DNA from: Marsupella aquatica
Taxonomy: Eukaryota; Plantae; Marchantiophyta
DNA length: 64,000 bases
Reading direction: 5' to 3'
Assembly (NCBI GenBank): GCA_973895155.1
Contig: OZ316899.1
Location: forward strand, 10,317,035-10,381,034
Position numbers and translations under genes: made by a program
Shown here: positions 27,359 to 64,000 of the stretch, one piece after another
Position numbering within the stretch: position 1 is the stretch's first letter
How the letters are laid out: each line of letters begins with the position of its first letter
Notes under the pieces: generated by a model
The model's input: the letters and a program-made list of their open reading frames with translations, nothing else
The model's database searches: none
What the model was told of the DNA's origin: nothing

Positions 27359-27376
27359 TGGCGCCGCTGCCGAGGA
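27359..27376 (+). other. Primer binding site, Athila-like TGGCGCCG(T/C)TGCC type
   Basis: TGGCGCCGCTGCCGAGGA preceded by a T-run. Confidence 0.7.
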
Positions 27377-29945: not shown

Positions 29946-29949
29946 GCTG

Positions 29950-35796: not shown

Positions 35797-35806
35797 GCCT
35801 TTTATA
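35797..35806 (-). promoter_or_regulatory. Candidate TATA box of family B LTR, upstream of the LTR ORF
   Basis: TATAAAAGGC, also conserved in the diverged fragment at 25066-25075. Confidence 0.6.
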
Positions 35807-39100: not shown

Positions 39101-39870
39101 TTGGGGTTGCGTCCTCTTGTGGCGGAATGGACGGATCCCAGGAGACTCGTTTCTTATGCTTTGGCATTGGGGTTTCAGGTTTGGGCAATGCTTTGGCAGG
39201 TTCCGGGTCAGTAGGGTCAACATTGGCTCCTTGCTTAGCTGGAGCCGTATCCTCCATATCCTCCGAGCTGATGGCTCGTACTTGCTGTTCATCCATCCGG
39301 GTGCTAGAGAGACTTGGGGTGGTCCCGTCTATAATGTCTTTTGGGTAATTTAGGAGATGCATCTCCCACGTTGCCTTTATTTCAAAAGCTTCTTCCTTGG
39401 AAAGGGACAAAATGAGCTTAATCATATTGAGCTCTCCTTCCTCCAAGGTCTATGAATCATACTCCTCGGGTCCCTGTGGAGTCTCGCCCTGATAATCGTC
39501 CACCGCCCATGATACTCGTACTGTGGGTGTCTTGAATTGTAGCTCCTTCTTGCCTTAGTCCGTGACTACGTGGCCACCGTATAGCCACGGCCTTCCCAAG
39601 AGGACCGGGTAAGAAGATGGTCGGACCGGCCTCATGACCAAAAAGTTTAGAAAAAACTCCACACCTCCTACGAGGGTGAGAACCTTGGTGAGCGTGCCTA
39701 GGGGGAGAACTCTTGCACCATTTGCTAATCGAATAGCTCAGGCTGTGGGTTGATATGTGAGATACCCCAATTTTACAGATGTTTCTTCAGTCATAATATT
39801 GACTCATGCTCCGCCGTCCACGAGAACCATCTTGATGGTATAGCCCTTGATCTCGATCAAGATGTCGGTG
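36200..39870 (-). pseudogene. pol: pol: protease, RT, RNase H, integrase (degenerate)
   Basis: LVDGGA protease motif near 39820; WVSPIVIVPKK, FIDDF; IYFASRQL/IARWVSLLQEF; CDLCQR, WGIDYIGP, LVSNQGTHF, GPF motif. Confidence 0.93.
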
Positions 39871-39989
39871 CCCCCAGGTCTTCGCAGATCATATTACAAT
39901 TTGCAACACCTACACGTGGTAGCCGTCTTCTCCATCGGCCCGTGAGCAACTCTCTCAGTTGTTGTCGGTATTGGGGATTATTCGAGAGT

Positions 39990-42099: not shown

Positions 42100-42200
42100 C
42101 TACTCTTATAAATGTAATGGTTAGCAACTATCTGGGGCCCAAGGTCCGGTGATCAGGTACATACGCACATGTCTCCATTCTACTATACTTAGAATGCCCC

Positions 42201-42215
42201 CTCCATCTAGCGCCA
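42201..42215 (-). other. PBS of family B
   Basis: TGGCGCTAGATGGAG, 13 nt downstream of the 5' LTR end. Confidence 0.7.
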
Positions 42216-42274
42216 AAAACAAAGGGTATGTCACGCCAAAAGCTTTGTCCTTACACAAATTTTGGCTTGGATGG

Positions 42275-43106
42275 TGTCGTGCCGAAAGATTTCGGCTCAG
42301 GAATGGCTTTTATAGGGGATGATGAGTGAGGCCTCCCGGTTGGGTTGCGTGCATGCTGACTCGGAGGGGCTACTTGGTTGGATGGATTGAGGTTTGGCGA
42401 TTGGGTGACTCGTCATCACCAGGTTTGGTGTTTGGGTGAGTCACCAGGCTTGGAGTTTGGATGAGCCTCGCTGCTGTCAGCTGGCTCAGGCTGGATGGTT
42501 GGGTTTCCAATACTACTTAAGACTTGAGCCTCGGCTCATTGAGGTTGGCGGTTGTCTATTGAGATCTGTTGAGTTGCGTTCTGTGAGTTCCGCTCTGTTC
42601 TGCAGAACTCGACTGTTGTGCGGCGGTTTTGGAGTTCTGAGTGAGTTTTTGATCCAGGCGGGGAATTTCTCGAGTCTAGAGTCTCGTTGATCTAGGAGGG
42701 GATTTCTCGAGTTTGGAGTCTTGTCGATCCAGGCAAGGATTTCTTGAGTTTGGAGCCTCGTTGGTCCAGGCCCGAGTTCCGTGCGAGCTGTTTTAGACTA
42801 GTGGAGTAGCTAGTAGTGTTTTGGTTTTGTGAGATAAGGAGGATAGTTCTTCCGTCAGATTTTGAGTAGTTAGTCACTCAAGGAGTTCTACCCGGCAAGT
42901 TAGAGGTAGCGGCCCACCGTAGGGCCAGCTACCAGACTCTTGCGGGCAAGCTTACTCAAGGGCACCTATTGTAACCTTTGTGAGAAAAGTTTAAAAATAT
43001 ATAAAGGAGTGAGAGTTTGCTCCAAAAAGTGCTTGTCACCTGTCTCGATTGCAGCCAGAAATGCGTAGTTTGCCCGAGGAGCCCCTAACTTTAAGTCCTT
43101 GCAACA
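42275..43106 (+). repeat. 5' LTR of family E (832 bp) with internal ~37-bp tandem repeats
   Basis: TG...CA; highly similar to 49016-49616; GATCCAGGC...GAGTCTCGTT units at approx. 42650-42775. Confidence 0.92.
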
Positions 43107-43147
43107 TTGGCGACCATACTGGGGATTCCTTGGGGCGATTGGATGAG

Positions 43148-45564
43148 ATGGGTGACTATGACAAAGTCGATCGGATATCGAGCATCCTCATGTCGATGAT
43201 GAGAACCATAAGGAAGGAAGAGCTTGAGTCGGAAAGGGTGAACAGGGAAGCAAATAGAACTACTCGGTGTCTCCAAGAGGTTCTAAAAGAGAATGGGCAG
43301 TTCGATAGGAGAAATGTGACAAGCTACCTTAAGTCTTACTTGACAAAAGCAGCTGTCTACAAGTTGGACGAAGGGACGGCCGTGAAAGAGTTCATGGTGC
43401 TGGTTGAGAAGGAGTTGAGTTTGACGGTGTGGACCATCGTTGAGTCAGCTGAGGGCTGGGATGACTTCAACCAGAAGATGAAAGAGGAGTTGTAAGCGGA
43501 GGATGCTGACCGGGTCACGCAGGCTACCTTCTTGGATTGGGTGAATGACAGGAACAAGAAGCTGAAGGGGCCGCAAGAGCTCCTAAGGGAGTTCAAGAGA
43601 AGGGTGTCTCAGTTACCCAAGCGAGATGTGGGAATCATCGAGTTGCAGTGCTCGATGCTCTTCTTGAGGGCAGCTGATGAGGACCTTCGAGAGGAGCTTG
43701 AGAACGCGATGGAGCTGCTGGAACCTTCAAGAGTTACCTTGTCTAACACCTGGGACCAAGTTGAGAAAGTGGTGTCGAAAGTGAGCAATCGACACCGGCG
43801 GCGAGAGCTAGACAAGGAGGCTACCACTCTCGACCTAAGGCCGCCGGAACCGATATTGAGGAAAGGGAAGCGAGAACCAGTGAAGGATGAGATCAAACCA
43901 TCGGTGGATGATCTCGCAGAAATGATGCAGAACCTGAAGATCTTGGCGGCACATGCGGTCGAGAATCCGAAACCGAGGGTTGCGAGTGCTCCCAAGAGGA
44001 AGCGAGAGATGTAGAGTTGGCCATGCATGTGGTGCGATAGCAAAGAGCATGACAAACGGGAGTGCCTGGACCTGAGGGAAGCTACGGATAAAGGGCTGAT
44101 CAAGTTTGTCGGTGAAGTTGGTCAGAAAAAGATATCGTTTGCCGATACTGAGGAGCCAATTCCATTCAACTCCAACAAGGAAGGCATGAAGGCTTTGGCT
44201 GAGAAGCGAGCTGGGAAGCGAGTCAAAGAGGCGTCCTCTTCGCACCTGGAAGCGAATGTTTACAATGTGGAGTTGGATGGCCCCGTGATGGAAACGGACA
44301 AGTTTTACAAGCGCTTGGCGGATCTGGTGCGAGAGAGATCCGGCCGGTGCTGATCAATGCGATGACGATTGAGGTTGGGGCTAGTTGGGATGCCTTGGTC
44401 GAGTCAAAAAGGAAGAAAACCGACGAGGATGACACTCCATCTCAATCAAGGGAACGAGAGAGGCGAGATACTCGAGACAAGGAAAGGAGGGTTAGGTTCA
44501 AAGAAGAGGAAATGAGCGAGAAAGAGCCAGAGAAAGGGAAACCGATAAGGAAGGACCCGGGCTGGGTGCTTGGCAGGGACGTGGACCAGGCCATGTACTC
44601 GGAGGTTGTAGTTGAGAAGTTCTGGAGCCAATAGGCTCAAGGGTTTACCAACGCCGAGTTCTTTGGCAGTATGAGGCGGGAGATCTAGGAAGCGATCTTG
44701 GAGAGATCCAAGAGGAAATGGATTTACAAAGAGGGCCCTCACACCTTGATGGGGGAGGCTGGCAAGATGGAAATTGGGAGTTTCCAAACTTACACTGCTG
44801 GGGTGTCCATGGGTTCAGGTAGTAAGCTTGCTGGCCCCGAAGAGTCAGACTTGGGGGAACCGAAGAGGGTCAAGTCCCTTGAAGAGGAGCTCATGAACTT
44901 GGACGATGAGTTCTTCGATGCAGAAGAGGAGCTCATGGGAACCGGAAGCAAAGCTGAGTCTGTGGCAAACAGGGACCCGACCGAAGGGGGAGAACGGGAA
45001 AGCATTACCGCGCAGTCAAGGACCATTCATGTCATGGGCTCAATGAAAGGAAACGGTTATGCTTACCGAGACGGATACTGGGCTCGAGCAAGTCCAGAGA
45101 GCGAGTGCCAGTTGGAAGGAATGGAAGGCAAGGTGCGGACGCTCATTGATACTGGCTCGAAGATCAACTTGATGGATCCAAAGGTGTTTCAAAAGGGGAA
45201 TTGGCCGGTGGACAATGAGTTGCTTTGGAGTGTGAACTTGGTGAGTTCAATGAAGGACTATCTTTGGGGCGGATGTCCAAATGTGATGGTGAAGTTCGAG
45301 AATGTCAAGCAGGCTTGTAACATTTTTGTTCATGAGCACTTGTCATTTTCGATGATACTGGGCATGCCATTCATCACTGAATGGAGGATGGAGACAAAGG
45401 TTCTGGATGATAGTACCTTCATGGTGAAGGTTTGGAGCAAAGATGGGAAAGAGGTGGTTCAATTTCCGGCTGTTTTACCTGGAAACGAGAGGAATAGGAA
45501 AGGGTTGAGGATTGAGAGTGCCGACTCTGGTCCAGGTCCGGAAAACGACTTGGCACTTCGCTAA
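43148..45564 (+). pseudogene. gag: gag-protease of family E (degenerate)
   Basis: GQFDRRNVTSYL capsid-like start, CMWCDSKEHDKREC knuckle, LIDTGSKINLM protease; in-frame stops. Confidence 0.85.
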
Positions 45565-45569
45565 AAAGA

Positions 45570-48500
45570 GTGGATCGGAGGAGTGCTCGTTCCTTAGCTC
45601 CTTGTGAAGGGGAAAACACGATGGATAATGGAGAGGAAGAGCCACTCAAATGTGCAAAGTCTAACTTGGGAAGGGACAAGCTGGAGAAGGAGTTGGAAAG
45701 GCAGTACTCGTCTATGGCCGTGCTTGTATACTCAAGTACCAAATACAAGACGGTTGACAAGAAGGTGAGGCCGGCGGCGATACCTTTGCCGGACAATGCG
45801 ATGGAGGTTATGGATTGAGCGAGATTGGAACCAAGGCTGAGGCCAACTGATTGGATAGGGCATAAGTTTACTCAAGAGAGTTTGGCGAAGCTGAAGATTG
45901 GTTCGGATGGGTTACTTACGAAGGTGGAGCAAGTGGCATTTCGAAAGATGATAATGGAGCATGGCAAGGCATTCTCGTTTTTGATTGAGGAGATTGGTTG
46001 TGCGGATCCGAGTAAGGTGACACTGATGGTCATCTTTACTGTCCCTCATGTTCCATGGGATCTGAAACCAATTTTGGTTTCGCGGGCTTTAGCTCCAAAG
46101 CTTACGGAACTGCTTAAGGAGAAGCTGAGTGCTAGGATTCTCGAGAGGTGTGATGCTCCCTACTCAAACAGATGGTTTACAGTGAGAAAGAAGAATGGAA
46201 GCTTGAAGTTCATTCAAGATATGCAACCTCCGAACAAGGTGACCATCAGGAATGTGGGAGTTGGGCCACTCGTGGATGAGTTTGCGGAGGAGTTCGCTGG
46301 GAGGACGATCTACTCCATGGGTGATTTGTTTTTGGGTTACGACCAGTTCCAGTTGGCGCAAGAGAGCTGAGACATTACGACTATGAGGACCCCGCTGGGC
46401 CTCTTGAGGATGTGCACTCTTCCTCAAGGGGCAACGAACTCAGTTGCGCACATGCAAAATGTGATGAGTAAAATCTTGGAGCCGTTCATTCTGGAAAAAG
46501 CGAGACCGTTTATTGATGATGTCCCGATAAAGGGGTGCTTGGCTGAAGGGAAGGATGAGACCTTGAGGAGTGATGGGATCCGGCAGTTTGTGTGGATCAC
46601 ATTGCGGATGTTAAGGCGGTTCTCGAGAAGCTGATTGATGTGGGAGTCACTCTTTCGGGGGAGAAGTCTGAATTCGGGATGAAAGAGGTGAAAGTTGTTG
46701 GGCAAATGTGCGGATCTTATGGAAGGAAGCCAAACATGGATAAGGTGAGAGCTATTAGCAAGATGAAGCTAGGATTGCGAATCGGTGCCAGAAGTTTGAA
46801 GGTTTCTGGGTGCTTGTGTCTTTTACAAGATCTGGATCCCTCACTTCTCGCACCTGGCGGACCCGCTCTATGAGCTATTGAGGAAAAAGGTTAAGTGGAG
46901 ATGGCTACCCGAGCATAGTGAAGCAATGGCTAAGCTTAAGAGCGCTCTCATGAGCCCGCCAGTTCTCCGAGCTGCGGACTATGAGAGCGGGCGACCACTG
47001 ATCATAACTGTTGATGCGAGTCCATCCACAGCCGGCCAGGTGGGCTGTTGGGCAAGATGACGAGAATGGGGAAAGGTATGCGATCAGATTTGGGGCGAAA
47101 TTTTTTACGGAAAGGCAAAGGAGATATGCCCAAGTTAAGAGGGAGCTTTGGGGTGCCAAGGTGGCACTCCATCAGGAGAGGAACTATTTGATTGGGGCGC
47201 CGGTGGTGGTTGAGACTGATTGCCAATCGCTGCTGGGGATGATTGCGAATTGTGACACGCCTGACATAGCGATGCTCAAGTGGATCGCTTTCATTTGGAT
47301 GTTCAACCCTGAGCTAAGTCACATTGCGGGAAAGGATAATCCGGTTGCCGACATGCTGTCAAGGGCGAGATTTGGAAATGAGGTAGCAACGAGAGTTGGC
47401 AAGGTGACCGGAACCAAAAGTGTTGGAAGTCTAGAGTTCAAGGAAGAACTCTACTCGGGAGAGTTGCTGGATATCGGGCGTTACATTAGCACTTTGGAGG
47501 AGCAACCAGAGTGGAGTTATTAGGAGTTTGTCAAGATCCAGAAGAAATCTTATAAGTTCCTATTGAGGGAGGGCTACTTGTGGCGAAGGCATAAGGACCC
47601 AAGTCAGTTGTTGCAGAGGGTTGTGGATACTAAGGATGAGAAAGACCGAATTCTCAAAGAGAGCCATGATGCTGACATGGCTGGGCACAAAGGGGTGCAT
47701 TCAACTTACGAGAGGGTTCGGAAGCTGTACTAGTGGCCAGGTTTATACTTGGCAGTTCAAGACTATGTCGAGACTTGCGAGATTTGCCAGTTTTACTTGA
47801 GGATCCGACATAGAGATGGATTGGTTCCGACTTACCCCGTGGCTCTACACTTTCAATGGGCTGTTGATGTGGTGTACATGCTGAGAGAGAGCAATGGGGC
47901 GAGATACTTGGTTTTGGCAAGAGAAGACTTGTCTTCTTATGTGGAAGGGAGAGCGTTGGTTTCAAACACTATTGCTGTCGTTTGCCAGTTCATACTTGAG
48001 GATATCATTGCAAGGCATGGGTGCTTTACAAGGATCAGAGCTGATAGGGGGGAGCTCAGCTCCAAGGAAGCGCAAGAGTTTTTCGACCAATACCGCATCA
48101 AACTGAAGCTGACTTCGAGTTACAATCCGGAACGCAATGGGAAATCTGAAAGGGGGCACATCCAGATTGTGGGCGCTTTGGCTAAGGCTTGTGATGGGGA
48201 CTTGGGCAGGTGGTCAAGTCTCCTTCCACTTGCTTTGTTAGTGGATCGGATGACTTGTAGCTCAGTGACCGGATATGTTCCGGCTGAGCTACTTACTGGG
48301 CACTTGCCGATGATGCCACTCGGGAAGATGTTTGCAGCTGGCAACTGATTGGATGGAAAGATGAAGTTTTGAGAGAGGAGTTGCTGGCTCGAAGGATCAA
48401 ACACTTCAACTTGTTACCCGTAAAGATTGAGGTGGCTCGGAAGCAATTGAAGATGGCGAGGTTAAGCAACAAGGGCAGGTTCGACAGGACTCATCGATTG

Positions 48501-48970
48501 AGGCCTGTCTTGGTTAAGGAAGGGGATTGGGTTCTGGTTTACGAAAGTAAGTTGGACGAGCAACACTTGAGCCGAAACAAGTTTGCTTGGAGGTGGCAAG
48601 GTCCGTATGTGGTGGTTGTTGTTCATGCGAATGCGACCTACACTATTCGGGAGTTGGATGGAACATGACAGTTCACCAAGTACCTTACACAGGGAAAAGG
48701 GTGAAGATCTTCAAGAGGAGGACCGAGAAGGGAATGGACTCAAGTTCCAACTTGAGTGAATTTGAAGACGAGGCACTGGTCCATGCGCATCCGTTGGACT
48801 TGAGTTTTGAAAGTGTCTTGACTGGTTCTGATTCGGACGAGTTGGACTTCGAGTTTCTGGAAAGTGGAGTGCCTAAGGCCGAGTCTGAAGGCTTTGGGTT
48901 TGAGTTTCTTGAGGAGGAAGTAGTCCAGGCGCATGGCTCAAGTTTGGACTCAGACTTAGAGGAAATCTGA
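45570..48970 (+). pseudogene. pol: RT-RNase H-integrase of family E (degenerate)
   Basis: YKTVDKKVRP, LPQGATNS, FIDDV, TVDASP, VETDC, CEICQ, IRADRGE, YNPERNGKSERGH, WQGPY. Confidence 0.92.
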
Positions 48971-49015
48971 TGGATTGGAGCAGACCGGAGGCTGCTCAGG
49001 TTTACTGGGGGAGGA

Positions 49016-49616
49016 TGTCGTGCCGAAAGATTTCGGCTCAGGAATGGCTTTTATAGGGGATGATGGGCAAGGCCTCCCGGTTGGGTTGCGTGCATGCTGA
49101 CTCGGAGGGGCTGCTTGGTTGGATGGATTGAGGTTTGGCGATTGGGTGACTCGTCGTCACCAGGTTTGGTGTTTGGGTGAGTCACCAGGCTTGGAGTTTG
49201 GATGAGCCTCGCTGCTGGCAGCTGGCTTAGGCTGGATGGTTGGGTTTCCGATGCTACTTAAGACTTGAGCCTTGGCTCATTGAGGTTGGCGGTTGTCTAT
49301 TGAGATCTGTTGAGTTGCATTCTGTGAGTTTTGCTCCGTTATGCGGAACTCGACTGTTGTGCGGCAATTTTGGAGTTCTGAGTGAGTTTTTGATCCAGGT
49401 GGGGAGTTTTCGATCCAGACAGGGAATTTCTCGAGTCTGGAGTCTCGTTGATCCAGACGGGGATTTCTTGAGTTTGGAGTCTTGTCGATCCAGGCAAGGA
49501 TTTCTTGAGTTTGGAGCCTCGTTGGTCCAGGCCCAAGTTCCGTGCGAGCTATTTTGGACTAGTGGAGTAGCTAGTCGAGTTTTGGTTTTGTGAGCTAAGG
49601 AGGATAGTTTTTCCGT
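49016..49616 (+). repeat. 3' LTR of family E, cut by the Copia insertion
   Basis: Matches 42275-42855 then switches abruptly to TGTTGTGATAG. Confidence 0.92.
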
Positions 49617-50829
49617 TGTTGTGATAGATTGAACAACTGTATTTCCATTCCCTTCCATATCCTTACATATAGGCTTTCCAATAGCCTGGTGGTTAGGCAG
49701 TTAGTGTGACCTAACCTGAGTAGGCGTAATCCTAGTTAACCTTATGTATGGTCTAGTTAACTCAGGTTACAACACTCCCCCTTGGGTGTAACAGGATTCC
49801 GGGGAGGATTGTTGCACCCACTTCTAGCCTACTCTAATTGTGAAATGTTTATTCTAAGGTTTATTGGTTTGGGGGAATGTAACCTCATTAAAACCCCCCC
49901 TCCTTTCTTGCTGGGGGAAAGAGTGTTACCATTCCATCCTTAAAAACCTTATAATTTTGGTTAATTTATGAGTAATCGAGTTAGTAGAGTCTTATACGAT
50001 TTAAAGTTATCGTAACTTGTAAAGACCTAAAAATCTCATTGTGGTCCCGCTTGGTAATTCGTGGAGGAGCGGATATCTTGCGCTGTGATTCTTGGCGATG
50101 GTAGTGGTGTGCAATTGGTGTTGGCTGCTGCACTGTGAAGATCGTCTCGCATGGAGTGGGCGTCATCATTTTTGCTTGGGGGTGTTTGTAACTGCATTGT
50201 TGGTGGTCATTCTTGCTAAAATTGGGGGATTCTTCTCTGATCGATTCTCTTCTGCGCGATTGAAGTGTCGGGAAGTGGATGTGGTAAACTGTAGCTAGTG
50301 GGATTTGTTCCTGGCTGTTTTACAGATGAGGTTTTGTATTGCTCCCCCTGACATTGTCGTTTATTTTTGTGGCTCTCTTATAGTCATTCTTTGCGTCGTG
50401 TTGACGTAGCTGCCGTTTCGCTCCAGAATGTTACTATCTTTGAATGAGTGATTGAGTGCTCCCCCTGATGTTGTCAATTCTTTGAATTAGTCTAGCTTTG
50501 GTGTTTGTCTTCTCAAGTGAGTCAGCAGCATCGATCCAGAAAGTAGTTGGTGGTGAGCTGGGTCGTATTTCTCCCTCTGTTATCGAAGGTAAAATTTTGT
50601 AAAGAATACTATTCTTGAGGTTTGAATGGCTGTTTGTTTGAGGGTTCGGATCTCTCCCTGATTGCCATAAGCATGTCTGTTGTGATCTTTGTTTGAGATC
50701 TGTTCGAGTTGAGCTGGTCCAAGCTTTGCGGTGTAGCCTACAGATTGGGTCCCCCCTGAGCAAAAAATGAGCGCTTCCACTGTAAGTATAATTGTGTTTA
50801 ATTTTGTAGTTCAGTTAAGGTCCATAGAC

Positions 50830-53800
50830 CTACTGAGATTGCATGTTGTTTATGCAATGCAGGAGGTAGGGATTTTGTAAACATGTCAGCAATGTTCTGT
50901 GAGCTTTGTATCCATTTAACTTGAATACTACTTCCTTGTTGTTCATGCGTGAAAAAGAACTTAGGAGCAATGTGTTTGGTTCTATCTCCCTTGATAAAGC
51001 CTGCTTGAATTTGTTCAACGCAGGCTCTGTTATCTTCGTGAATTTCCGTCGGTGTTGACAGTGTAGGTATGCCTGTATTCTCATGAATGTGATTGATAAC
51101 GTTGCGTAGCCAGATACACTCCCTACTTGAATTCGTAGAGAGCTATTATCTCAGAGTGGTTGGATGATGTAGTAGTTAATGTTTACTTGCAACTTCGCCA
51201 TGAAATTGCTGTCTCACCCATCAAGAAAATGTATCCGGTCTGAGATTTTGCATCCTCAGGGTCTGAAAGGTAACCTGCATCAACATACCCAGTGAGTAAG
51301 TATTTAGCATCTGATGGGTAAAATAGTCCCAGATCTATGGTACCTGCTAGGTAGCGGAAAATACGCTTTATGCCATTCCAATGACGAATAGTCGGCTTGG
51401 CACTATGGCGTGCCAGTAGGTTTACTATGAAGGCTATGTCAGGCCTTGTCTGGTTCAAAAGGAACATCAGGACACCTATAGCAGATAGGTATGGCTTTTT
51501 TGGGCCAAGTAGTGGCTCCATCTCGCTTTTCTTCCGGAAGAGATCCTTTTCTTTATGAAGTGAGCGGATGTCCATGGGAGATCTGACTGCAGTGGCTTTG
51601 TCCATGTTAAATTGCCTTAGAATCTTTTTGATGTACGTGGACTGATGTAGTAAAATGCCATTGTGCAGGTGCTCAAATTGCAGGCCTAGGCAGAAAGAAG
51701 TTTGGCCTAGGTCGCGCATCTCGAAGGCCTTTTTCAATAGTGTAATAATTTCAGTCAGAATCTTTTTAGTTCCGAACAGGTTCAGATCGTCCACATAGAT
51801 GGCTACTATAATAAATTCCTTGTTCTCCCGCTTCAGGAATAAGCAGGGTGCTATGTCTGCATTCTTAAATCCCATAGCCTGCATCTCGGCCTTAAATCAT
51901 TTGTACCATGTCAGGCCACTTTGCCTAAGGCCATACAGTGATCTTAACACCTGTACTGCGAATCGAGTTCTCCGGGTGATGTCTCTCTAATTCTGTATAG
52001 GGACTTTAAGGGCTATCTTTGCTGCAGTCTTGTGGAGTATTGCTGAATTGGTATGCTCAAATGTTTCCGGCTGGTTCCGAGTTGCTGCTTTATCGATTTG
52101 TTTCCCTTTGCTGTGGTATTCGACTCGTTTCACCAATTCTGGAGGGGCCTCCATGTATATAACTTTGTCTAAGTGTCCATATAAATACACTGTCACAATA
52201 TCCATTTGATGCATGGATAAGTGGTGGTGTTGTGAAAATGTAATCAGGTACCTGTAGGTAATGACATCCATTACCGGCGAGTATGTGAGGTTGTAGTCTC
52301 TGCTCAGGACTTGAGTGAATCCCCGAGCCACCAGTCTGGCCTTGTGTCTTGTTACCTCGCCTTTCGCATTTCTTTTCTTTACGAGGGTCCATTTATACCC
52401 TGTGAGATGTACTTCAGGTTCTGCTATTGTGATTGGGCCAAATACCTGGCGGGCTATTAATGAGTCCAGTTCTAAATGGATGGCCTGTTCCCATTCAGGC
52501 CAATCAGGTTGGACCTCAGCTTCTTTGATTGTTTGAGGGTCAGGCAGTTCGTCTTCAATCTACTGTGCTATGCGGAATGCAAATTGTTCATCTATTGTAG
52601 TGTGCTCTCTGTCCCATACATGTCCGGTTCTTCCATAGTTGATTGATATCTCTGCATTGTCTTCTGGTACATTTGGTTGACTTGTAGTTGGATCCCTGGT
52701 TGATGGGTTGGGTGCAAGTGCTGGGGCAACTCTACGCTGTCTTGGTTGCTTGTCGACAGATCCCAGTGGGCGGCCTCTCTTTGCTTTCGGGGCTGGTGGG
52801 GTCTCCATTTGTATTCTGGATGGGGCGTTTGCTGCTGGGATATGGGAGCGTGTCACCTGGGCGGCATCTGCGAAGGAGTCTGGTAGGTGTTCTGCCATCC
52901 TTGCTAGGTGTAAGATTCGTTGTACTTCAGTGTCCGCATGACTATCCCTTGGGTTGTTCCAGAAGCCGGCATCAATTTGCCAAGTAAGTTGGGAGGTTTT
53001 CTCTGTGTCAAGTTGCTTCGTATGTAGGCTGGGAAAAATATCTTTGTAGAAGTGGCAATCTGCAAAGCGTGCTTTGAAGACATCGGATGTTGTAGGCTCC
53101 ATATATCTGATGATTGAAGCTAAGTCAAAACCTATGTATATTCCTGGGTGTCTCTGGGGTCCCATCTTAGTTCTCTTAGGTCCTAGGATGGGCACCATTA
53201 CTTTACAGCCAAACATTCTCAGGTGAGAGATATTTGGTATGGTCCCCAGTGCTAGGTGATGTGGGGTAGAGGAATTAAAAGATGATGGTCTATAATTGAG
53301 TAGTGCAGTAGAGTGGAGAATGGCATGACCCCAAGCAGCTGTTGGTAAGTTTGTCTGCATTAGTAGGGGTCTGGCAATCAGCTGCAGTCGTTTAATCAAG
53401 GATTCGGCTATTCCATTCTGAAAATGGACATGGGGTACTGGGTACTGGACATCAATGCCCGTGGCCTGGCAAAAATCTTCAAACGTCTTAGAGGTAAATT
53501 CGCCAGTGTTATCTACTCTCAATGTTTTAATTTGGTTTTCAGGGAATTGAGCTCTCAATTTTAGTATGTGGGCAAGGAGTCTGGAGAATACCAGGTTTTG
53601 TGTAGATAGTAAGGATATCTGACTCCATTTTGTTGATGCGTCTATGACTGCCAGGAAAAATTGGAATGGGCCACTTGGAGGGTCAATCGGCCCGCATACG
53701 TCAGTGTGTATGCGCTCCAGGAAGTGGGGGATTTGGTGCTCAATTGTAGGTGGTGAGGGCCGGATTATGAGCTTGCCCTATGAGCAAGCTAAACAGGGAG

Positions 53801-54361
53801 CTTTCATGGACGTGGGGTGGACCATTTCCGGTATGCCCAGGGTTTCTCTAATCAGTTTCTGGAACATTGTTGTTCCAAGGTGGCCAGTCTCCTGTGCCAG
53901 ATCTCGGTAAGTGTGCCTTGGGGTGTTCCAGTGTAGAAGCTGTGGATTTTAGGAGTGTAACAACCGGGGAGTGATGCTCTCAGGATCTCTCTGATCTTAG
54001 TATTTGTTGGTTCCCCCGAGGTGATGTACAAGACTTCCCGTCCTTGTTGAGTGCCCGTCTTAATATGCAGTTTGTTAGCACGAATATCCCCAAAGCTTAG
54101 TAAGTTTCTGGTTGCCTTTGGGGCGTATATTGCAGACTCCACATGAATTATCGTCCCACGGGGTAGGGTGACCAATGCTGGTCCAAATCCCTCTTCCAAT
54201 TGATGCTGGCCCATAATCGTTGTAAGTTTTCTTTGGGATGGTATAATTTGCTTAAAGTATTCCTTATGCTTAAAAATGGAATGCGATGTACCACTGTCGA
54301 CTATGCATTGGGAAAAATTTTCTTTGATACTAGAATCAGGTGTGGTCTTTGATATTACCAT
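50830..54361 (-). pseudogene. pol: Copia pol: protease, integrase, RT, RNase H (degenerate)
   Basis: IVDSGTSHS, WHRRL, RVDNTGEF, QNGIAESLIKR, ARGFTQ, SLYGLRQSG, IYVDDL, GYVDAGY. Confidence 0.93.
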
Positions 54362-54390
54362 GTTTATAGTTGGTATAATTTATGTGGATT

Positions 54391-55387
54391 CTAGGAAAGT
54401 CCCATACGTCTCAGGTTCATTTTGTGCAGTGCTCTTCTTATATAGTTGCACCAGGTGTGCAAGTGTACGACAGAATTTTTGAATGTGGCCTTTAGTGCCA
54501 CAACAAAAACAGGTAGAGGGGTTTTTGTATTCATCTCTTTGAGTGCTTTGCTGTTGATTTGTCCTCGCTCGGGGTTGATAGTTGCCTTGCTGCCAATTGT
54601 TTCTGAAGTTATCGCCGGTGTTTTGGTATCTTCCCCTGGATCTGCATCTGAAGTTGTTGCTTCTGCCTCCGCGTCCTCTGAAAAAGCTACCTCGGCCTCT
54701 GTATGTGTTTCTCCCCCTGAAACTACCTTGACCACGGTAAGATGAGCCCTCTTCCCTTTGGGTTGTAACGTAGTGGGATTCTGAATTTGTGACTAGAGGG
54801 AGAGTTCCAGGGGGTCATTTGTGGGAATTCTGTAATAGCAATAGCTGGTGCTTTTCAGCCAGGAGCATATGGGCAATCAACTCAGAATATTGTGTGAATC
54901 GCATATTGCGATATTGGGTAGAGAGAATAAGATTTGTAGAGTGAAGGGTAGAGAGCGTTTTCTCAATCTGTTCGTCATCATTAACGGGGTGGCCACATAT
55001 GGCCAATTGGGATACAATCCAAAATAATTCGCAATTGTAATCCACGATTGTTTTATGGTCCTGGACCTGGAGATTTATCCAATCGTGTCTGGCCGCAGGC
55101 AGGTGTATGGTGCGCGTGTGGTCAAAGCGTGATTGAAGTGCATCCCAAAGGACTCTCAGATTATATTCATTCATGTACTGTCGCTTCAGAGAGTCACTCA
55201 AATGGTGTCGAATTAGTATCAATGCCTGCGCTTTTTGCTGAAGTGTTTGGCCATTGTCAGTTATTACTGTATCCTGTAGATTCTTTGAAGTTAGATGAGC
55301 TTCAGCATCGAGCGTCCAGGACAAATAGTTGGCACCATCGATGCTGAGTGGTTGAAATAAGAGTTTCTCCATAGAATTCTTTGACAT
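54391..55387 (-). pseudogene. gag: Bianca-type Gag
   Basis: LSIDGANYLSWTLDAEAHL...LILIRHHL...LPAARHDWINL, followed by an RGG-rich region and a zinc knuckle in shifted frames. Confidence 0.88.
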
Positions 55388-55711
55388 ATTGCTAGATTCT
55401 AGTGGTATAATTTCTTATTGGTAAGCACAAGGTTGCAATTGTATTTGAGTGTCCAATCTCAATTTCATTCAATTGTTGAAATTTGAGAAAGAGGAAATGG
55501 AATTGAAAATTGTAGTTGGTGAATTGTAATTTCTTATCTCAATCGTCCAATTCGTTTCATGTGTAATTTTGATTTATAACCTTCCATCCCCCTTGATTGA
55601 TCTGACCACCGTTGCACCTTCGCCTGCCATAAATCCTTTCCTAAAAGGTTGCCAGTCTATCTCAAAAGAAGAAAGAGGGATGATTTTATAAAAAATTGAT
55701 TCAAATCAGCA

Positions 55712-55725
55712 TCGTGCTGATAACG
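55712..55725 (-). other. PBS complementary to the 5' half (anticodon arm) of tRNA-Ile
   Basis: CGTTATCAGCACGA directly abutting the 5' LTR; no TGG start. Confidence 0.75.
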
Positions 55726-55813
55726 TGTTGTGATAGATTGAACAACTGTATTTCCATTCCCTTCCATATCCTTACATATAGGCTTTCCAATAGCCTGGTG
55801 GTTAGGCAGTTAG

Positions 55814-56029
55814 CCGGGGTCGATCCTGCTATCGACTAAGGTACATTCCGGCGGCGGAACACAAACCATACCTAGGAGGTATCCATATTTAGCAGTATGC
55901 GCACTTAGCGCTAGTTTACGAGAATAAGGTGCATTACGTGCTTCCCTTCCTGCCCGAACCCTCAGATTTACGAGGGATGTGCCCGTCTAAGCTGAAGTCT
56001 GAGTTAAGGCCGAAGCCTACGACGTGACA
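55814..56029 (+). mobile_element. 3' end fragment of a family B-type giant LTR
   Basis: Diverged reverse complement of 32236-32445; ends CGTGACA; carries the double hairpin. Confidence 0.8.
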
Positions 56030-56591
56030 AACCCCCTTTAGGTGTCTTGCTACAACCCCCCCTAAACTCTGGCAGGATCGGTTACATGCATGTGGATGAG
56101 TTAACTAGGCCTAAATTGCACTTCATGTAACACAAAACCCAAAAAAAGCCTCCCTAGCAAACCCTTATGCCCCTTGCATATAGTTCAGTCAATGGCTATG
56201 TAAAGCGTAATCCCATGGCTCAGAATGTGTATGGGATCGGGTAAATATCCTTTAACCAGGCATATGACACTACATTATTTTAAAAAGTGTTCAATGGCCA
56301 CAATGAAAATGAATGGACAAGTCAATTTTGTTGACTAAATTGGACTTGGCTTACTATTGGCCATTGTCTTATGTTGACTAAGTATGACTATGTAGTCAGA
56401 CCTGAATGACTCATTCAATAGAGCAAGATTTTTAAAAAGTTCAATTGTCTTAAGTAGTCATATACATGACTACTAATGACTATCAAGTCTTGTGGGGTCT
56501 CAAAAATAAGACTGATGTTCAAAGGTTGCACTTGCGTGGTCACCCCAGTCACAAGTGGTCTGGTCACGAAATGCCCTGGTTTCTACTAGTG
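56030..56591 (+). mobile_element. Orphan right end of another CACTA element
   Basis: Ends CCCTGGTTTCTACTAGTG with GACT/AGTC-rich subterminal sequence; left limit uncertain, no left TIR found. Confidence 0.7.
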
Positions 56592-56863
56592 GGCGTTCGC
56601 AAGCGGAGTGCCTTTGCCCGTTGTGATTGGGCCGACCCAGTGCTCATGCCTAGACCCTCAGATCTCATCGCCGCTTTGGGCCCCCGATCGGCCATACCTT
56701 GCGTCCCAAGCGTTCGTTGCCCATGGTGTCAACTCCATTGGCCTTGGGCCCAAGAGGAGCTCTCACTCAAGCCCTCATATCTCAAAGTCAGTCCGGGGGC
56801 CCGGATGGTCGACCTTGAGCCCAGCCCCTTTCCCCTTGACCCAACCAACACTCAACTAGTCTA
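56592..56863 (-). mobile_element. Internal fragment of family D LTR
   Basis: Matches approx. 31669-31960. Confidence 0.85.
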
Positions 56864-57112
56864 ATCCAAGTAGGATTCCAGTCCAATCAGGTAAGCCAAC
56901 TCCAAACTTGTCAAACCCATTGTTCTCCCCTTGGGGTACTCCCCTTTGGTTCAAACCAGCCCGCCCACAGATGTAAGGCGGGCATCATCTACTTCCACTC
57001 GAAAAAAACAAATCGGTGGCCCAACAACCTCTAGCACCAACGCAATCCAAATTTATCCTTAAGAGGTTGAGAGGAGTGAAACTAGGATACAACTCATAAA
57101 GGTAGCTACAGT

Positions 57113-57441: not shown

Positions 57442-57612
57442 AGTCGCGGAACTCGACTACCTTAACACTTAGCTCCGATGTCGCTGACTCCGAGGCCAAG
57501 CTCCCTTATGGTCCAGGCCCGGATAGGCCATCCGGGGAGGACTTAGCATGGGGAGACTTATGGGCAATGAGACGTGGCACTGGCGAGGCAAGGGGCCAAG
57601 CTGGGGACACAC

Positions 57613-60600
57613 TGTGATGCCTAGACAGGAATCACTCGGCCAGTTAAGTGGGTAAAGCAGGAAGGCACCCTAGGAACACCTTAGTATAGGGACAAAACAA
57701 GGAAAATATAAACAATTAGGGGCAACCATGGAACCCGGGACGAGGCCGGAGGTAAGGACGCTGAGGGTGAAAACTTGATTAGGGTTAGGGCGCGTTAAGC
57801 GTCGGCGGCTAGGAAGGATCAACGGGAAGAAGGATCGGCAGAGGAGAGGGGTAAGGAGCGCTTGCAGGAGATGGTGGCTCATTTGCGAGCACGAACTAGG
57901 CAGACGACTACGGGAGGCCAACTACTGTCAGCTGCTTAGGCAAGCACTCGGGGAGAGAGTAGATACCGACGATCGACCTAAGGAGGGTATGAGCAACGTC
58001 AATCAAGCGGCACATTTCTGGGGATGCCTGTTCGAACGGGCAACTGAGTACATCAAGACTTACGAGGATGAGGAATCAGAAAGGGCAGCTCGAGAACGGC
58101 AGGAGCTCGCTCGATTGTGGGAGCTGCAGAAGACAGCTTTCTTAGGAGGCAAACTCATCAAGGACGAGTTCCTGTGGACGCCTACTTCCAATCAACTCGA
58201 CAATCTTCTGTTTTGCAAAGACAACGTCATCGGCATCCGAGAGGCCATCAAGAACTGCAATGACATACACTGGGAATTAAAGGGTAGCACGGAAAGGTGG
58301 ACCCAGGCAACGGTGCTAGGAGAAACCTCCACGGCAGCAGAGATGAAGAGGAAGGGAGCCGTCAACGATGAAGCCACCCCGGCAAAAAGAACGAGGTCGG
58401 CGGCACCAAAGAAGCCAGCCGAGCAGCAGAGCAGGAGGCAGGGAGAAGCCGAAGAGGAGGACGTCGATCCCATCAAGGCCATTCCAACCAGGGATGACAC
58501 TTGGAAGGGCTGGGCGGCAACCCTACCGGTGGAGGTGCAACTACATTTTGCACGGGAGGAGGATGCATGCTTTACGGCCATGCAGACCAAGAAGTACCAA
58601 GGCTTCATGGCCGGATCCGGCTTAGAGGCCTTTGTAAGATTACCATGGCTGAAGCCGGAGGTACCGGAGTCAGACCTATTAGAATTCGTGGGGTCATGGG
58701 AACCCGAGACCAATTGCACGAGGATATATGGGAAGGATTTCTATCTTACTCCCAAGGTAATTGCCAAAGTGTTTGGCTTGCCGATAGGCAATAAGACCAA
58801 AGTTGATACCAGGAAGACCTTGCCTGACAAGGAGTTCCGGTCGTTCCCCGGGCCATCAACGAAGAATGGCTTCTTCCGGAACACCTGCACCAACCCGCAC
58901 ATAGGAGAGATGATCGACTTCTTGCGGGTGACCATGCATTGTAACTTGCCGAGGGCAGAGATCGGCAAGGCACAGGTCTATCTGGCAGAGAGGCCAGACC
59001 CAAGCCGGGACTACAACGGGTACCTCCTCAACCAATTGAAGAAGATCTTAAAGGAGGAGCAGCAGGTAATCGGCATGGGGAGCGTATCGCGGCTTGGCTA
59101 TCACATGCCGCTGTTGTGCCGGTATGCCAGAGGTCAGACTTTTGCCCCAGTACTTCCCCTACAGGTAAGGGCACCCGAGGAAGCTCCAACGCCGAGGCCG
59201 TTGGCTGAGAAGCCTCAACCACCTGTTAGCCCTACGATCGAGCAGGTGTTTAGGCCCAGGAAGGAGGACTTGCCGATGCAGCAACCAGGCATGCAGAGTC
59301 TGCTGAAACTACTGGAGAAAGAAAAGAAATCGGCATCGGCAACAACAACGGCAACGGCAACAATGCAAGACACTACTATAGAGGTAGGCCTACACCGGCT
59401 CACAAGAGAAAACCCCTTTGCTGGAGACAAGGAGAGAATCAGGCCGGAATCCAAGCCAGGTGTTCGAATGTATGTGGGAATCTCAAGCTCCGAATCTGAG
59501 GCAGAATTGCCTAAAGCTCCTACCGACGAAGAGGAGAGGGAGAAGCCGGACGTCCAAGAAGTAGAGGAGGCAGTGGAGGACTGCAACCATGATAATTCCG
59601 GCTATGGGTCGGACCATCACGTTCCAGGAGTAAGGACCTGTGGCCGGTTTGTCCCCACACTTCCAAGGGTAGTGCGAGGGGACCCCAACCAGTAGAGTAG
59701 CCCTGAGTCTCCCCCACCAGATGTTGCTCCCCCGAGCTTTGACGGCATAAAACAGATGGTGCAGGAATTTCAGGAGCGAATCAGGCAGGAAGAGGAGGCA
59801 GCCCTGGCTAGGGAAAAGGATTTACCAGGAGGAGATTGGCCGGAGGACATCAGGCGGCTAGCCAAAAAAGGAAGCAAACCTCTAGCCACGATTGAAGAGA
59901 TCCGCAGGACGGCTTGGGAGCAGAGGCCGCGATGGGCGATGCCGATCACTTCTACTTACTCCACCTATGCTAAGAATAGAGCCATGGAGTATGGTGAGAT
60001 GTGTGGGGAACTTGCGCTCGGCATCTTTGGAGAGGAGTTGGAGGTAGGACCCTTTTTCCATAGGGAGCAGTTGGAGAAGCACCAATTAGAAGAAGCGGTG
60101 GCTTTAGAGAGACGCAAGAAGGACGAGGTCATTCGGCGGCTTAGGAGGATGGAAGCCGAGATTGAAGATCTAAGGGCGGCCAAGAAAGCCCAAGATGAAC
60201 TGCGGATTAAACGGCATGAGCTGAACATCATGCAGGGGCAGTTGGACACCGCGCAGGCTGATAATCAAAATATCAAGGAAAAACTAACTCAGAAGCAGGG
60301 AGAGTTGGCCGACACGATCAAAGAGAGGGAGAAGTGGAAGCAAGAGCTGAAGAATACAGAGGAGGCCCACATAACAGCCAACATCCGGGCCATGGCGGAG
60401 ACCCAAAGAAAGGAATGGGCGTTGAAGGGGGAGCTCGAGAAAATCCGCGGAGCCCTTGAGCAGAAGGAGGCCGAGTTAGGGAAATCCTATCAAGGGATTA
60501 TGGCGCTGCAGCAGGAGCTTGCGTCCCTGACGGCCAGCTTCAAGGCCGACCTAAGGGAGAAGGACGAGATGCTCGAACAGACTTACGCCAAGATGAACCA

Positions 60601-62274
60601 GATGGAGTCTATCATCATTGCAGAGCTCGACAAGGAGCTAAGAGCAACCCGGGAGGAGAGGACTACCTTGAAACAAGAACGGGAGGAAGCCCAGAAGGAA
60701 CTAGAGGAGGCACGCAAAGACCTGGATGAGACCCAGGAGGAGTTGGAGGAAATCACGAGGAAGATGGAGAACCTCCAGCGGCGGGCCGACAACCAAACGG
60801 AGCGGCTGAAGAAACAAGCCGCAGTATTTAAGTGCTTGTCTTCATCAGGCCCAACTCCAATTGGGGCAACCAAGTTACCAGGAGTGGTACTGGCCGAAGA
60901 AAAAGCCGCGCCACCTGCACCAGTGCCGGAAGTAAGTGGGAAGGGGAAGGGACCAGCTGCCGAACCAGAAAAGAAGAAAAAGCGGAAACCTTCAGGGTCA
61001 AGGAGTAATCCGACTCCACAAGCCGTGGTGACCAAGGAGGTAGAACCAGCACCATCCTCCGGCATGAATACGGCAATAGATCCCGCTATCATCACAGGTG
61101 GGGGTGGTGCGGCCCAAGCCGAACTACTCAGTAATGAGTCCGGTATTCCAGATCCGCCTCTTGAGCAGGCCGGGAAGACCGTAGCCGAGGCTGAGGCCGT
61201 AACCGATTCCCGAGCCGATGCCGACGCCGATGGTGGACCCAGTCAGGCCGATGGAGAGTTGACTCAGTCAAGGGCAGGTAATCTGTCAGAAAATGAACCT
61301 ACGGCAGTGGCTGAGGAGGAAGCGTTGGGGGCGTCCATTAAGGATCCACCACCGGTGTCGTGACGGTGCAAGGGCGCCGTTCCTTTTAGGGAGGGCGGAC
61401 GTGGAGGGAGGAGGCGTGAGTGGGCAGGGCGGGCGCTGATCTCCAAGTTTAAGATTAGGATCAGGACCAGGAGCGGCCCTGACACTTAGCTTAGTGGGAT
61501 TGCGGTCCCACTGGTAGGAGCAACACTTGTGCTCCTGCCTTGCTGTACATAGGTAGATTCGGGCAAGTAGATTACTGTTAAGTAGATTAGGCTTACGATG
61601 CAAAGAATGGCGGATCCACTACCAGGATAAGTACCTGGGCAGCGGGGAGCTCAGGGCCTCTTCTTTAGCAAGTTTTTAGTTTGCACCAGTCGGGCTAGGA
61701 TCAAGTAGTACGAGAAGCTCTCGGTTAGTCATACAGTGACCCTTGTGTATATTCATGTTTCCTCATGCCTAAGAGTTGAATAGAGTTGGCCTCACGGCTT
61801 AGTTCGCAGAGCTTGTGTATGAGATGTACTGTTTGTATGGCAAGTGCATGGTATGACTCAGTCAGAATGAGTCATTTTGCTATTTGTGTGTCGCATTAAC
61901 TTGTGTGAAGAGTGCACACATCAACCAAAAGGAAGGAAAGTAAGCAGGGGAGTGAGAGTTGGATGTGTTGAGCTGAGAGAGGTCTTAGCGGCTTAACCAA
62001 GCCTATTGGGGATCATTCCGGCGGCGGAATCCAAACATACCTAACAAGACGGAGGGGAAGACAGGGGAAGGCCTAGATTAGGCCGGCTACGTATCTCATG
62101 ACCCGATGAAGGATCTGTCCAGTATATGTGTGTAAAATGTTAATAGTAGTAGTAGAAGGTTAGCAGCGTCCCATGCCGCTAAGCCGCGGAAACGGCCTCG
62201 CCAAGCGCGAAACCTGCGGGAATCGGCTTGAGCTGGGGGTTTCTTGGGTTTAGGGAGCCATGGGACGTACCACA
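57613..62274 (+). mobile_element. 4.66-kb protein-coding solo-LTR (family A, copy 2)
   Basis: TGTGATGCC...GTACCACA; TSD CACAC (57608-57612, 62275-62279); removing it restores the family D LTR sequence GACACACACTAAGGACT. Confidence 0.92.
57989..61363 (+). pseudogene. LTR-encoded protein, family A copy 2: 1124 codons with one premature TAG at 59693-59695
   Basis: ORFs 57989-59695 and 59756-61363 are in the same frame; the TAG is CAG (Gln) in copy 1. Confidence 0.9.
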
Positions 62275-63593
62275 CACACACTAAGGACTTGGACTAGCCT
62301 ATGGCTGGTCGGGTCAAGGGGAAATGGTCCGGGCTCAAGGATGGCCGTCCGGACCTTCGGATGGACTTTGAGTTCTGAGGGCTTGGGAATGAGCTCCTCT
62401 TGGGCCCAAAGCCAATGGAGTTGACGCCATTGGCAACGGACGCTTGGGGCGCAAGTTGTGACCCAATCCGGGTTGGGCCGATCGGGGGCCCCGAGCGGTG
62501 ATCAGACCTGAGGACCTAGGCATGAGCACTAGGTCGGCCCGGTCACAACGGGCTAAGGCACTCCGCTTGCGAATGCTTATCAAGAAAGTTATGGGCGTTG
62601 CCAGTTGGTGGCGCGCCCATTATGCGCGATGGGATCCGGGTTGGGGGCCAAATGTTTAGGGACCAAAGCTGGTCCGGGGGTGGCAGGTCTCCAGAAGCAT
62701 ATATGAGGGGAGTGGTGTCTCCCTGGGGGCTAAAGCCGAGCCGAAGTCGTGAGCCGCGGAGGTCGCGACACTAAGGGAAACTGCCAAACGGAAATGACGA
62801 TATCTTCCCAACGGGAAGTCCGTTGGAGGACTTCTTGGGTGCGTTGGAAATCTCTTGAAGAGGGCTACGTCCTCTTGAGATCATCTGGGTCTGGGGGTGC
62901 CGTGGGTTCTTGTGGTTTGCGGGTGTTAGCTCGCCCGCTTGCCAAATCCTGCCTAACAGCAGCCAAGCCGCGTTCAGTCTTCCAAGGGAGCTTGCATTGG
63001 GGAGGCAAGGCCAAGTAGGTGCGGAGGCTGAGTTCCAAAGGTTCTCGGCCCCTAGACCACCAGTGGGGCAAACCGGGAGCGATGGCTAGAGTTGGGACCG
63101 TTCTGGTCCCGGCGTCTTGGGACAAGCTTTAGGATAAGCTACGCTATTTGGGCCATGAGCATGTCCCGAGGTCAGGGCGGTCAGTTGGTGATGGATAGGT
63201 ACAAGGGGGAACCCGGGCCGCGCCCAAGGAAGAAGTTGTTCTGGACCAATAGTGGGCGTGGGTTCTGGTTCCAACTTATGGCATCGGGAGGACCTATCGC
63301 TGACCTATTTACCAACATCTGTTGAGCTTGAGTTAGGATGCTAGACTTGGCGAGTTCTAGATCGTGAAGGGTTACTTACCGAGGTGTTTGGTTGCTAGTG
63401 CAGATAGGGAGGACCGTTGAGTAGCGGTTGTGTTAAAGAGCAAGTGCGGCTTCGTATGGGAGGGGCCGCTGGCGGTGCAAGGGGCACTAGGTTACTTGCT
63501 TGAGGTATTCCGTGGAGGCGTTCGGGCACCAAGGGCACTCAGGCGTGAGTGCTGGGATTGGTGAGGGCGCTGGGTGGCAAGGTCCACCATTTG

Positions 63594-63605
63594 TGGTATC
63601 AGAGC
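63594..63605 (+). other. tRNA-iMet primer binding site
   Basis: TGGTATCAGAGC, 2 nt after the LTR end. Confidence 0.92.
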
Positions 63606-64000
63606 GATTGCTAGCATAGACACTGGGCCAAGGTTGTGCTAAGTCGGAATCCAAAAATCTTAGCGGATTTTTGCGGGGACTTAGTGCTTCAACGTGCCCG
63701 GCGGGTCGATTGCGGGCAGATTTGGTCGTTGGGAACATGGCTAAAAACACTTGATCAAAGAGTGGCAAACAGGCTCCTCCCACCAAGGGGAGAGCCCAAG
63801 TTCAAGATGAACAAAAGGAGGACGGGTCGACTTCCCTAGACGAACGTTATAAGCAGGACAAAGAAGACGCAATGGCCAAACCGTCGACCGTTGCGGCGAA
63901 CACGTCAAGTGTAGAGCGCCGTCAACTTAAAGGGAAGGAGGTGGCTGATCCTTAAGAGGATGGGTTGGATGACGACGACTCCGACGCAGAAGGAAGCGAC

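Follow-up and report, generated by a model that had tools for sequence, protein, structure and literature searches.

The long terminal repeats (LTRs) of plant retrotransposons are regarded as non-coding, and solo LTRs as spent. Plant Gypsy elements can carry extra open reading frames (ORFs), which the cited sections of two reports locate in the internal region, either ahead of gag or in the stretch from pol to the 3′ LTR (PMC7264820; PMC3485330). Typical domains of such ORFs in Ogre and Athila, according to part of another study, are PMD and Athila ORF-1 (PMC6317226), and LTRs of up to ~5 kb are known among the Athila/Ogre/Tat (OTA) elements (PMC6317226; PMC11728184, each in part). A gene inside an LTR is found in betaretroviruses like mouse mammary tumour virus (MMTV), where sag resides mostly in solo LTRs and its ratio of nonsynonymous to synonymous substitution rates (dN/dS) of ~0.29 has been ascribed to pre-integration selection (PMC4667437, in part). 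VANC21, which is encoded by the Mutator-like DNA transposon VANDAL21, binds a short motif of which tandem repeats have built up and removes methylation from related copies (PMC5735166, in part); VANC proteins are reported to be a structural relative of MAIN/PMD (PMC13547354; bioRxiv 2024.09.27.615353, each in part), and the cited section of the former describes them as dicot-specific and reports a coiled coil. The unit examined here, family A copy 2, occupies 4662 bp of a 64,000-nt stretch of the genome of the liverwort Marsupella aquatica (assembly GCA_973895155.1, contig OZ316899.1, positions 10,317,035 to 10,381,034 of the forward strand; hereafter the window, in whose coordinates all positions are given). 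We propose, with a probability of roughly 0.72, that it is a solo LTR derived from a Gypsy element of the non-chromovirus, Athila-like kind, whose long LTR holds an accessory gene; the product is predicted to be a nuclear, DNA-binding protein with a coiled coil and a VANC/PMD fold, and would protect the family against silencing.

Like the OTA elements, the related family C element in the window has a non-chromovirus Gypsy context, and the family A ORF, which is in the sense orientation, resembles the extra ORFs of that group (Athila ORF-1, PF03078; Transposase_32, PF20167; PMD, PF10536) in a remote Transposase_32/ATHILA-like domain as well as in motifs resembling nuclear localization signals (NLS) and a coiled coil. 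Unlike those ORFs, it would lie past the polypurine tract (PPT), within the LTR itself; it persists in solo LTRs and has no Pfam match above the cut-off. The location recalls sag, although sag is an animal retroviral gene with an unrelated protein and function, whereas the present ORF measures 3.4 kb and belongs to a plant retrotransposon. VANC21 (PDB 9lnk) is the best structural match and is encoded, as here, by a transposable element; the PMD-C proteins MAIN and MAIL1 are grouped with it in this comparison. The family A protein differs from VANC21 in its 7–10% identity and lack of any sequence match, in a carrier that has LTR hallmarks and a Gypsy relative rather than being a VANDAL Mutator-like element, in the absence from the family A LTR of the tandem target-motif arrays found for VANC21, and in having liverwort rather than dicot sources for its named homologs. 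The family A ORF is sag-like in position and possibly VANC-like in function, and a member of neither group. An incomplete search of the literature turned up neither a plant element whose LTR contains a long ORF nor a VANC-like protein in a retrotransposon LTR; extra ORFs of plant Gypsy elements, multi-kilobase LTRs and solo LTRs are already known, and what would be new is a gene inside a plant LTR.

The two copies of family A in the window have the following parts:

57613–62274, + strand: family A copy 2, a 4662-bp unit with TG...CA ends, probably a solo LTR, within the 5′ LTR of a family B element
57608–57612 (left) and 62275–62279 (right), + strand: target site duplication (TSD) of copy 2, CACAC
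57707–57712, + strand: TATAAA, kept in both copies, a candidate promoter
57989–61363, + strand: accessory ORF of copy 2, 1124 codons plus stop, ~3.4 kb, ~72% of the unit
58466–59158, + strand: central domain, residues 160–390, dN/dS 0.09–0.13, predicted VANC/PMD-like fold
59693–59695, + strand: in-frame TAG of copy 2, the sole in-frame stop within the ORF
61364–62274, + strand: non-coding tail of copy 2, 911 bp, a putative poly(A)/R/U5 region
12937–17641, − strand: family A copy 1, a 4705-bp unit with TG...CA ends and the TSD GACCT (as read on the + strand)
17263–13842, − strand: ORF of copy 1, interrupted by TAG at 14950 and again at 14929, and by a 1-nt frameshift near 14482

The initial annotation had described these units as two separate insertions with TG...CA ends and different TSDs, and both features are confirmed. 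Copy 1 lies in a CACTA element (tnp2/DUF4218), whose two parts at 8384–12853 and 17647–23700 have a BRCT-like match, Transposase_21 and DUF4218. For copy 2 the empty site is available as well: paralogs of its host repeat elsewhere in the window have a single CACAC-like site, and a joint from 57606 to 62274, which bypasses the entire copy, is present in 4 of 4 public sequencing runs. TG...CA ends together with a 5-bp TSD, the latter found in 93.4% of LTR elements, are the usual LTR signature (PMC6317226, in part). A Pfam search of copy 2 in all six frames returned no family at E≤0.001, so that it has no gag or pol; neither unit has a long internal repeat, an internal LTR pair, or terminal inverted repeats beyond ~4 bp, and no primer-binding site (PBS) or PPT was found inside either copy or at its flanks. 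The earlier statement that gag, pol and internal repeats are missing is thus borne out, and both copies show the features of a solo LTR, namely TG...CA ends, a TSD of 4–6 bp and a single unit free of gag, pol, PBS and PPT.

What kind of LTR this would be is indicated by family C and by further related pieces in the window:

32236–36164, − strand: family C 3′ LTR, 3929 bp, with a broken homologous ORF and no TSD of its own
36165–42228, − strand: family C internal region, with gag, zinc knuckle, reverse transcriptase (RT), RNase H and integrase, and a purine-rich tract adjoining the 3′ LTR
42229–42274, − strand: remnant of the family C 5′ LTR, its last 46 bp, which match the 3′ LTR end at 89% identity
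1–1704, + strand: family A′, related more distantly and truncated at the edge of the window
24724–25153, + strand: start of a family C-type LTR, 77% identical, interrupted by a family B insertion
55812–56029, + strand: end of a family C-type LTR, in which the shared tail motif recurs

Family C is a non-chromovirus Gypsy element, and its ORF-bearing unit is its 3′ LTR, because the unit follows the integrase and the purine tract, has no TSD, and has an end that is repeated before the PBS. Its homolog of the central domain (34763–34236, − strand) is 26% identical to that of family A (E=1e-14 in a tblastn search of the window), and a profile built without family C recovers it at 9e-60. The first 9 nt of the two units are the same, and so is their layout, with a TATA motif in the first 0.4 kb, an N-terminal domain, a basic motif, the central domain, a coiled coil and a tail, which measures 0.86 kb in family C. 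The gene order of family C by Pfam is gag, RT, RNase H and integrase, and a protease motif was read by eye; its frames gave no aRH hit in the Pfam search and no chromodomain hit in 3 of 3 frames at E≤0.001, these frames being broken. The sequence TGGCGCTAGATGG at 42215 is a putative PBS, as the purine-rich tract is a putative PPT; the 64-kb window has no tRNA gene against which to match the former. The rest of the 5′ LTR has been displaced by a nested Gypsy insertion. In an RT tree (35 rows chosen from 120 hits), family C clusters with RTs of Calypogeia fissa and with unnamed ones, separate from the angiosperm hits, and the C. fissa RTs are 62–64% identical to its own; built without REXdb references, the tree does not separate Athila, Phygy, Selgy and the aRH-less Tat Z (PMC10508981, in part). 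Family A′ shares its final 10 nt with copy 1; the end of its ORF is 38% identical over 76 residues and its tail 60% over 479 columns, and no PBS follows it. The LTR status of family A is made likely by its homology to family C and by its own ends, and the solo-LTR origin put forward in the initial annotation is supported by the related ORF-bearing unit that serves a gag-pol element of the window as its 3′ LTR. With high confidence we expect full-length family A copies with gag-pol to exist elsewhere, and the two copies seen here to have arisen by LTR-LTR recombination.

The ORF encodes an N-terminal domain (~residues 1–110), a basic NLS-like linker, a central globular domain, a low-complexity stretch, a coiled coil (~residues 700–950), a second basic motif and an acidic tail, and both basic NLS-like motifs are conserved in the two copies. 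Over 1109 aligned codons the copies differ at 156 first, 127 second and 305 third positions, and the whole-ORF dN/dS is 0.24 (bootstrap range 0.20–0.29) with equal rates or 0.35 (0.29–0.41) with a kappa of 4, in either case well below 1. The central domain, in which the proteins are 91% identical and 51 of 79 differences fall at third positions, has a dN/dS of 0.09 (0.05–0.14) to 0.13 (0.08–0.20), compared with 0.26–0.42 in the coiled coil, 0.45–0.59 in the C-terminal tail and ~1 in the 70 codons upstream of the MSNVN ATG. Insertions and deletions divisible by three make up 4 of 5 within the ORF versus 1 of 12 outside it (Fisher p=0.01). Together, the dN/dS between copies, which the initial annotation had proposed as a check, and the frame-keeping indels support the protein-level constraint that it had read from a nearly identical central domain with largely third-position changes and from the single TAG in the 1124 codons of copy 2. 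Four of the five ORF indels keep frame, as it had stated for the large ones, and the fifth is the 1-nt frameshift of copy 1; the deletion near 59540 removes 81 nt, or 27 residues instead of ~26; the breaks in copy 1, two TAGs and this frameshift, are absent from it.

The TATAAA at 57707, which had been described as preceding the MSNVN start, is indeed kept in both copies, but it lies 282 nt upstream of that ATG and other ATGs intervene. In both copies these are an in-frame ATG 21 nt after the TATAAA (57728 in copy 2), followed by an out-of-frame one. The in-frame ATG was rejected for now as the true start because dN/dS is ~1 upstream of MSNVN. A short upstream frame at 57871–58044, whose out-of-frame ATG is conserved in both copies, overlaps the start of the ORF and is possibly an upstream ORF (uORF); it is broken by a stop in copy 2. 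At the other end of the unit, the 911-bp tail diverges between copies by K=0.11, against 0.39–0.53 at silent sites, and this greater conservation fits the expectation for cis elements. The last 375 nt of the tail are predicted to fold more stably than 100 of 100 shuffles (z −3.4), and a 15-nt motif, at 62015 in copy 2, is common to families A, A′ and C.

The period in which selection acted can be gauged from the breaks themselves. Synonymous divergence between copy 1 and copy 2 is 0.39–0.53; in simulations, neutral evolution to K=0.2 produced ~20 stops per ORF copy, and K=0.01–0.02 produced 1–2, as observed. Because each copy has only 1–2 stops, nearly all of the divergence, and the constraint with it, predates insertion, and the insertions are late. 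Family A is very abundant in the public runs, which come from four organisms (18,300, 33,770, 848 and 140 contigs; the best of them may be the source sample), and most of its sequence differs from copy 2 at the stop position in all four, so the TAG at 59693 likely arose in copy 2 itself. None of 16 runs listed for the family is an RNA run, which speaks neither for nor against expression. Differences were called copy-2-specific where the alternative reached a share of at least 0.8 in both deep runs; among the 40 differences listed of 813, 34 lie within the unit and 22 of these are copy-2-specific. Seventeen of the 22 are C-to-T/G-to-A changes, of which 15 stand in a CG or CHG context, versus 38% of C/G sites (p=3e-5). 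Such a pattern is typical of deamination in the course of methylation decay. By codon position the 17 copy-2-specific coding changes are distributed 5/5/7, which fits neutrality with little power. Frames are broken in every copy seen (copy 1, copy 2 and the family C unit). We are therefore fairly confident that purifying selection acted in replicating elements and that both solo copies are now methylated and decaying. The view of the initial annotation that these solo copies are expressible genes that could act in trans is not supported for the two of them, since both are broken, their constraint predates insertion, and the private changes of copy 2 are mostly deaminations at CG/CHG sites.

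A profile search of 1.84 billion representatives retrieved 64 clusters of central-domain homologs at E≤0.001, whereas word-index searches with the ORF gave no matches. Nine of the 20 clusters looked up had a named organism, which was Calypogeia fissa in eight and Riccia sorocarpa in one, both liverworts. Many of the homologs also end in a coiled coil; two unnamed open ones, P0072 and P0061 (906 and 875 aa), have the domain plus coiled coil, and their contigs, at 3.6 and 4.0 kb, are roughly as long as one LTR. Two others, P0058 and P0060 (the latter from R. sorocarpa), have an N-terminal DDE_Tnp_4 fragment, hinting that Harbinger-type DNA transposons also carry the domain or that gene models were fused. 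The N-terminal part of the family A protein bears a marginal likeness to the start of P0010 and P0072 (4–6 of 1000 shuffles as good), and its first 115 residues have no usable atlas match. Searches for Transposase_32, ATHILA ORF-1 and PMD found no Pfam family above the curated cut-off in the ORF; 4 of 56 alignment members match Transposase_32 weakly (best 17 bits versus a cut-off of 45), and the atlas features Transposase_32 (0.89) and ATHILA (0.88) fall below 0.9 and count as leads only. AlphaFold models of the domain (pLDDT 89.9 for family A and 91.3 for family C) were compared with 48,161 solved chains, and each picked out the chain 9lnk_A of the VANC21-DNA structure, with Z 8.5, an rmsd (root-mean-square deviation) of 4.2 over 210 aligned residues and a next-best Z of 2.2 for family A, and Z 7.8, rmsd 4.3, 206 residues and a next-best Z of 2.7 for family C. 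To judge from these models, the central domain probably has a VANC/PMD-like fold, and with such a fold a trans-acting protein remains plausible for intact members of the family.

We propose that an Athila-type extra ORF, usually located between pol and the 3′ LTR, came to occupy a position downstream of the PPT, which made it a part of the LTR. Because the ORF would then lie inside the LTR, a full-length element would have two copies of the gene, and each solo LTR would retain one. Transcription would begin at a promoter near the LTR start and be ended by signals in the tail; the TATA motif near the 5′ end and the poly(A)-type signals after the stop make it somewhat probable that the LTR is a transcription unit by itself. 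The product would be nuclear, would oligomerise through its coiled coil and would bind the DNA of its family, where it may counter silencing or activate transcription. The proposal that it works in trans, as a sequence-specific anti-silencing factor or activator of the family, is tentative, a little short of even odds. LTR-LTR recombination, to which the TSDs point, would leave a solo LTR with the whole gene, and both of the present solos would later have become methylated, and broken by the stops and frameshift that are seen in them.

Several observations weigh against this proposal, some of them touching the LTR and others the protein. The family C 5′ LTR survives as only 46 bp, the PBS-like site of family C sits 13 nt from the LTR end, alignable DNA between families A and C is almost nil, and no family A copy stands beside a PBS, a PPT or gag-pol in the 64-kb window; related loci were found neither in viral nor in metagenome contigs, and none of the 24 loose ends listed, out of ~2180 in the public runs, falls at a family A terminus. 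If the unit were instead an independent mobile element, either DNA-transposon-like or, as the initial annotation suggested as its alternative, a non-autonomous one moved by a Gypsy integrase, the missing PBS and PPT at the flanks of both family A copies and of A′ would be accounted for, and the DDE_Tnp_4 fragment in two homologs, one from Riccia, would place the domain also in or near DNA transposons. We nevertheless judge this very improbable. In family C the homologous unit is a true 3′ LTR, free of a TSD, located after pol and the purine tract and with its end recurring before the PBS, and the family A units lack internal repeats, an LTR pair, a PBS and a PPT and have terminal inverted repeats of no more than ~4 bp, while a 5-bp TSD with TG...CA ends is the signature of an LTR (PMC6317226, in part).

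With regard to the protein, identity to 9lnk_A is 7–10% at an rmsd above 4, a best Z of 7–8 is common even for models without a true match, and the models of families A and C share most alignment rows, so that they are not independent. Foldseek on the PDB gave no match at E≤0.001 and did not find VANC21, a second structural comparison on its 102 chains gave none either, and on BFVD the best hit was unnamed (E=0.025), with none at E≤0.001; the profile run against PDB sequences returned coiled-coil noise only, VANC21 being absent, and the domain profile missed the one searched protein labelled Transposase_32. The four family A non-coding segments have no enriched 6–8-mer and no VANC-type motif arrays, and the single one of 21 enrichment tests at P=0.04 (family C tail) is at chance level. 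The low identity, the high rmsd and the missing target-motif arrays would be expected if the LTR reading were correct and the protein did something else, such as particle structure or chaperoning, nuclear import or integration targeting, in which case its likeness to VANC would reflect a common scaffold or chance; the long coiled coil would fit a role in oligomerisation, and the cited section of PMC7264820 presents Athila-type extra ORFs as without established function. This possibility has a substantial chance, although clearly below even, since with both models the VANC21 match extends over ~90% of the domain and exceeds every other chain by far, and both copies keep the two basic NLS-like motifs. 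It is rather doubtful that the solo LTRs are themselves expressed and selected gene cassettes, giving protein in trans or co-opted by the host, even though one LTR contains a TATA motif, a complete ORF layout and a conserved tail, copy 2 could still yield a 568-aa product with the entire central domain, the VANC-like fold is that of a factor reported to act on other copies (PMC5735166, in part), and the high abundance of the family (18,300 and 33,770 contigs in two runs) means that intact solos may exist. It also weighs against the main proposal that the 5/5/7 pattern, drawn from the listed differences inside the unit (34 of the 40, of 813), is indistinguishable from that between copies (Fisher p=0.46). 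Yet copy 1, copy 2 and the family C copy are all broken, the changes in copy 2 are of the methylation type, the stop counts indicate recent insertion relative to the divergence of the copies, and a low dN/dS without post-insertion selection has been reported for sag-bearing solo LTRs (PMC4667437, in part). A broader scenario, in which a VANC-like gene moved into the LTR of an early-land-plant Gypsy element, LTR-LTR recombination, as the chief means by which the host deletes elements, takes out gag-pol yet leaves behind and multiplies anti-silencing cassettes, and young intact solos sustain full-length copies in trans, is likewise unlikely, if slightly less so.

The neighbourhood of the two solo LTRs is made up of further elements. 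Family B, which hosts copy 2, occupies 57442–57612 and 62275–64000, with an LTR of ~1.5 kb and a tRNA-Met-type PBS at 63594, and more pieces of its LTR lie at 25154–26200, 30024–30413, 30646–32140 and 56583–56871. One of these splits an RT fragment (30411–30642 and 32141–32218, + strand) with 87% DNA identity to the family C RT. Another element has an LTR-like end, ACCACA, at 27340–27376, 9 nt from an Athila-type PBS, and gag at 28557–30059; long LTR-to-PBS spacers (9 nt there and 13 nt in family C) may be a trait of these elements. The Gypsy element inserted in the family C 5′ LTR spans 42275–49616, and its LTR parts are 91% identical. It is followed at 49617–55813 by a Copia element whose LTRs share just 88 identical bp before a junction to the inverted family C-type LTR end, which suggests a deletion or rearrangement at ~55813.

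A constrained ORF of 3.4 kb in the LTRs of at least three related families (A, A′ and C) makes their solo LTRs gene-sized. Annotation would label such solo LTRs as unknown host genes, and several of the Calypogeia fissa homologs are indeed entered as ‘unnamed protein product’. The predicted structural link to VANC21 would give one class of Athila-type extra ORFs, long without an explanation, a function that can be tested, and, as far as the models go, it suggests that transposons of non-seed plants already made use of the VANC/PMD fold. If intact solos were expressed, deletion by the host would serve to spread a gene for counter-defence. Should they prove to be live anti-silencing cassettes, they would be the first anti-silencing system of this type to be carried by a retrotransposon and would date the VANC/PMD fold back to the elements of liverworts.

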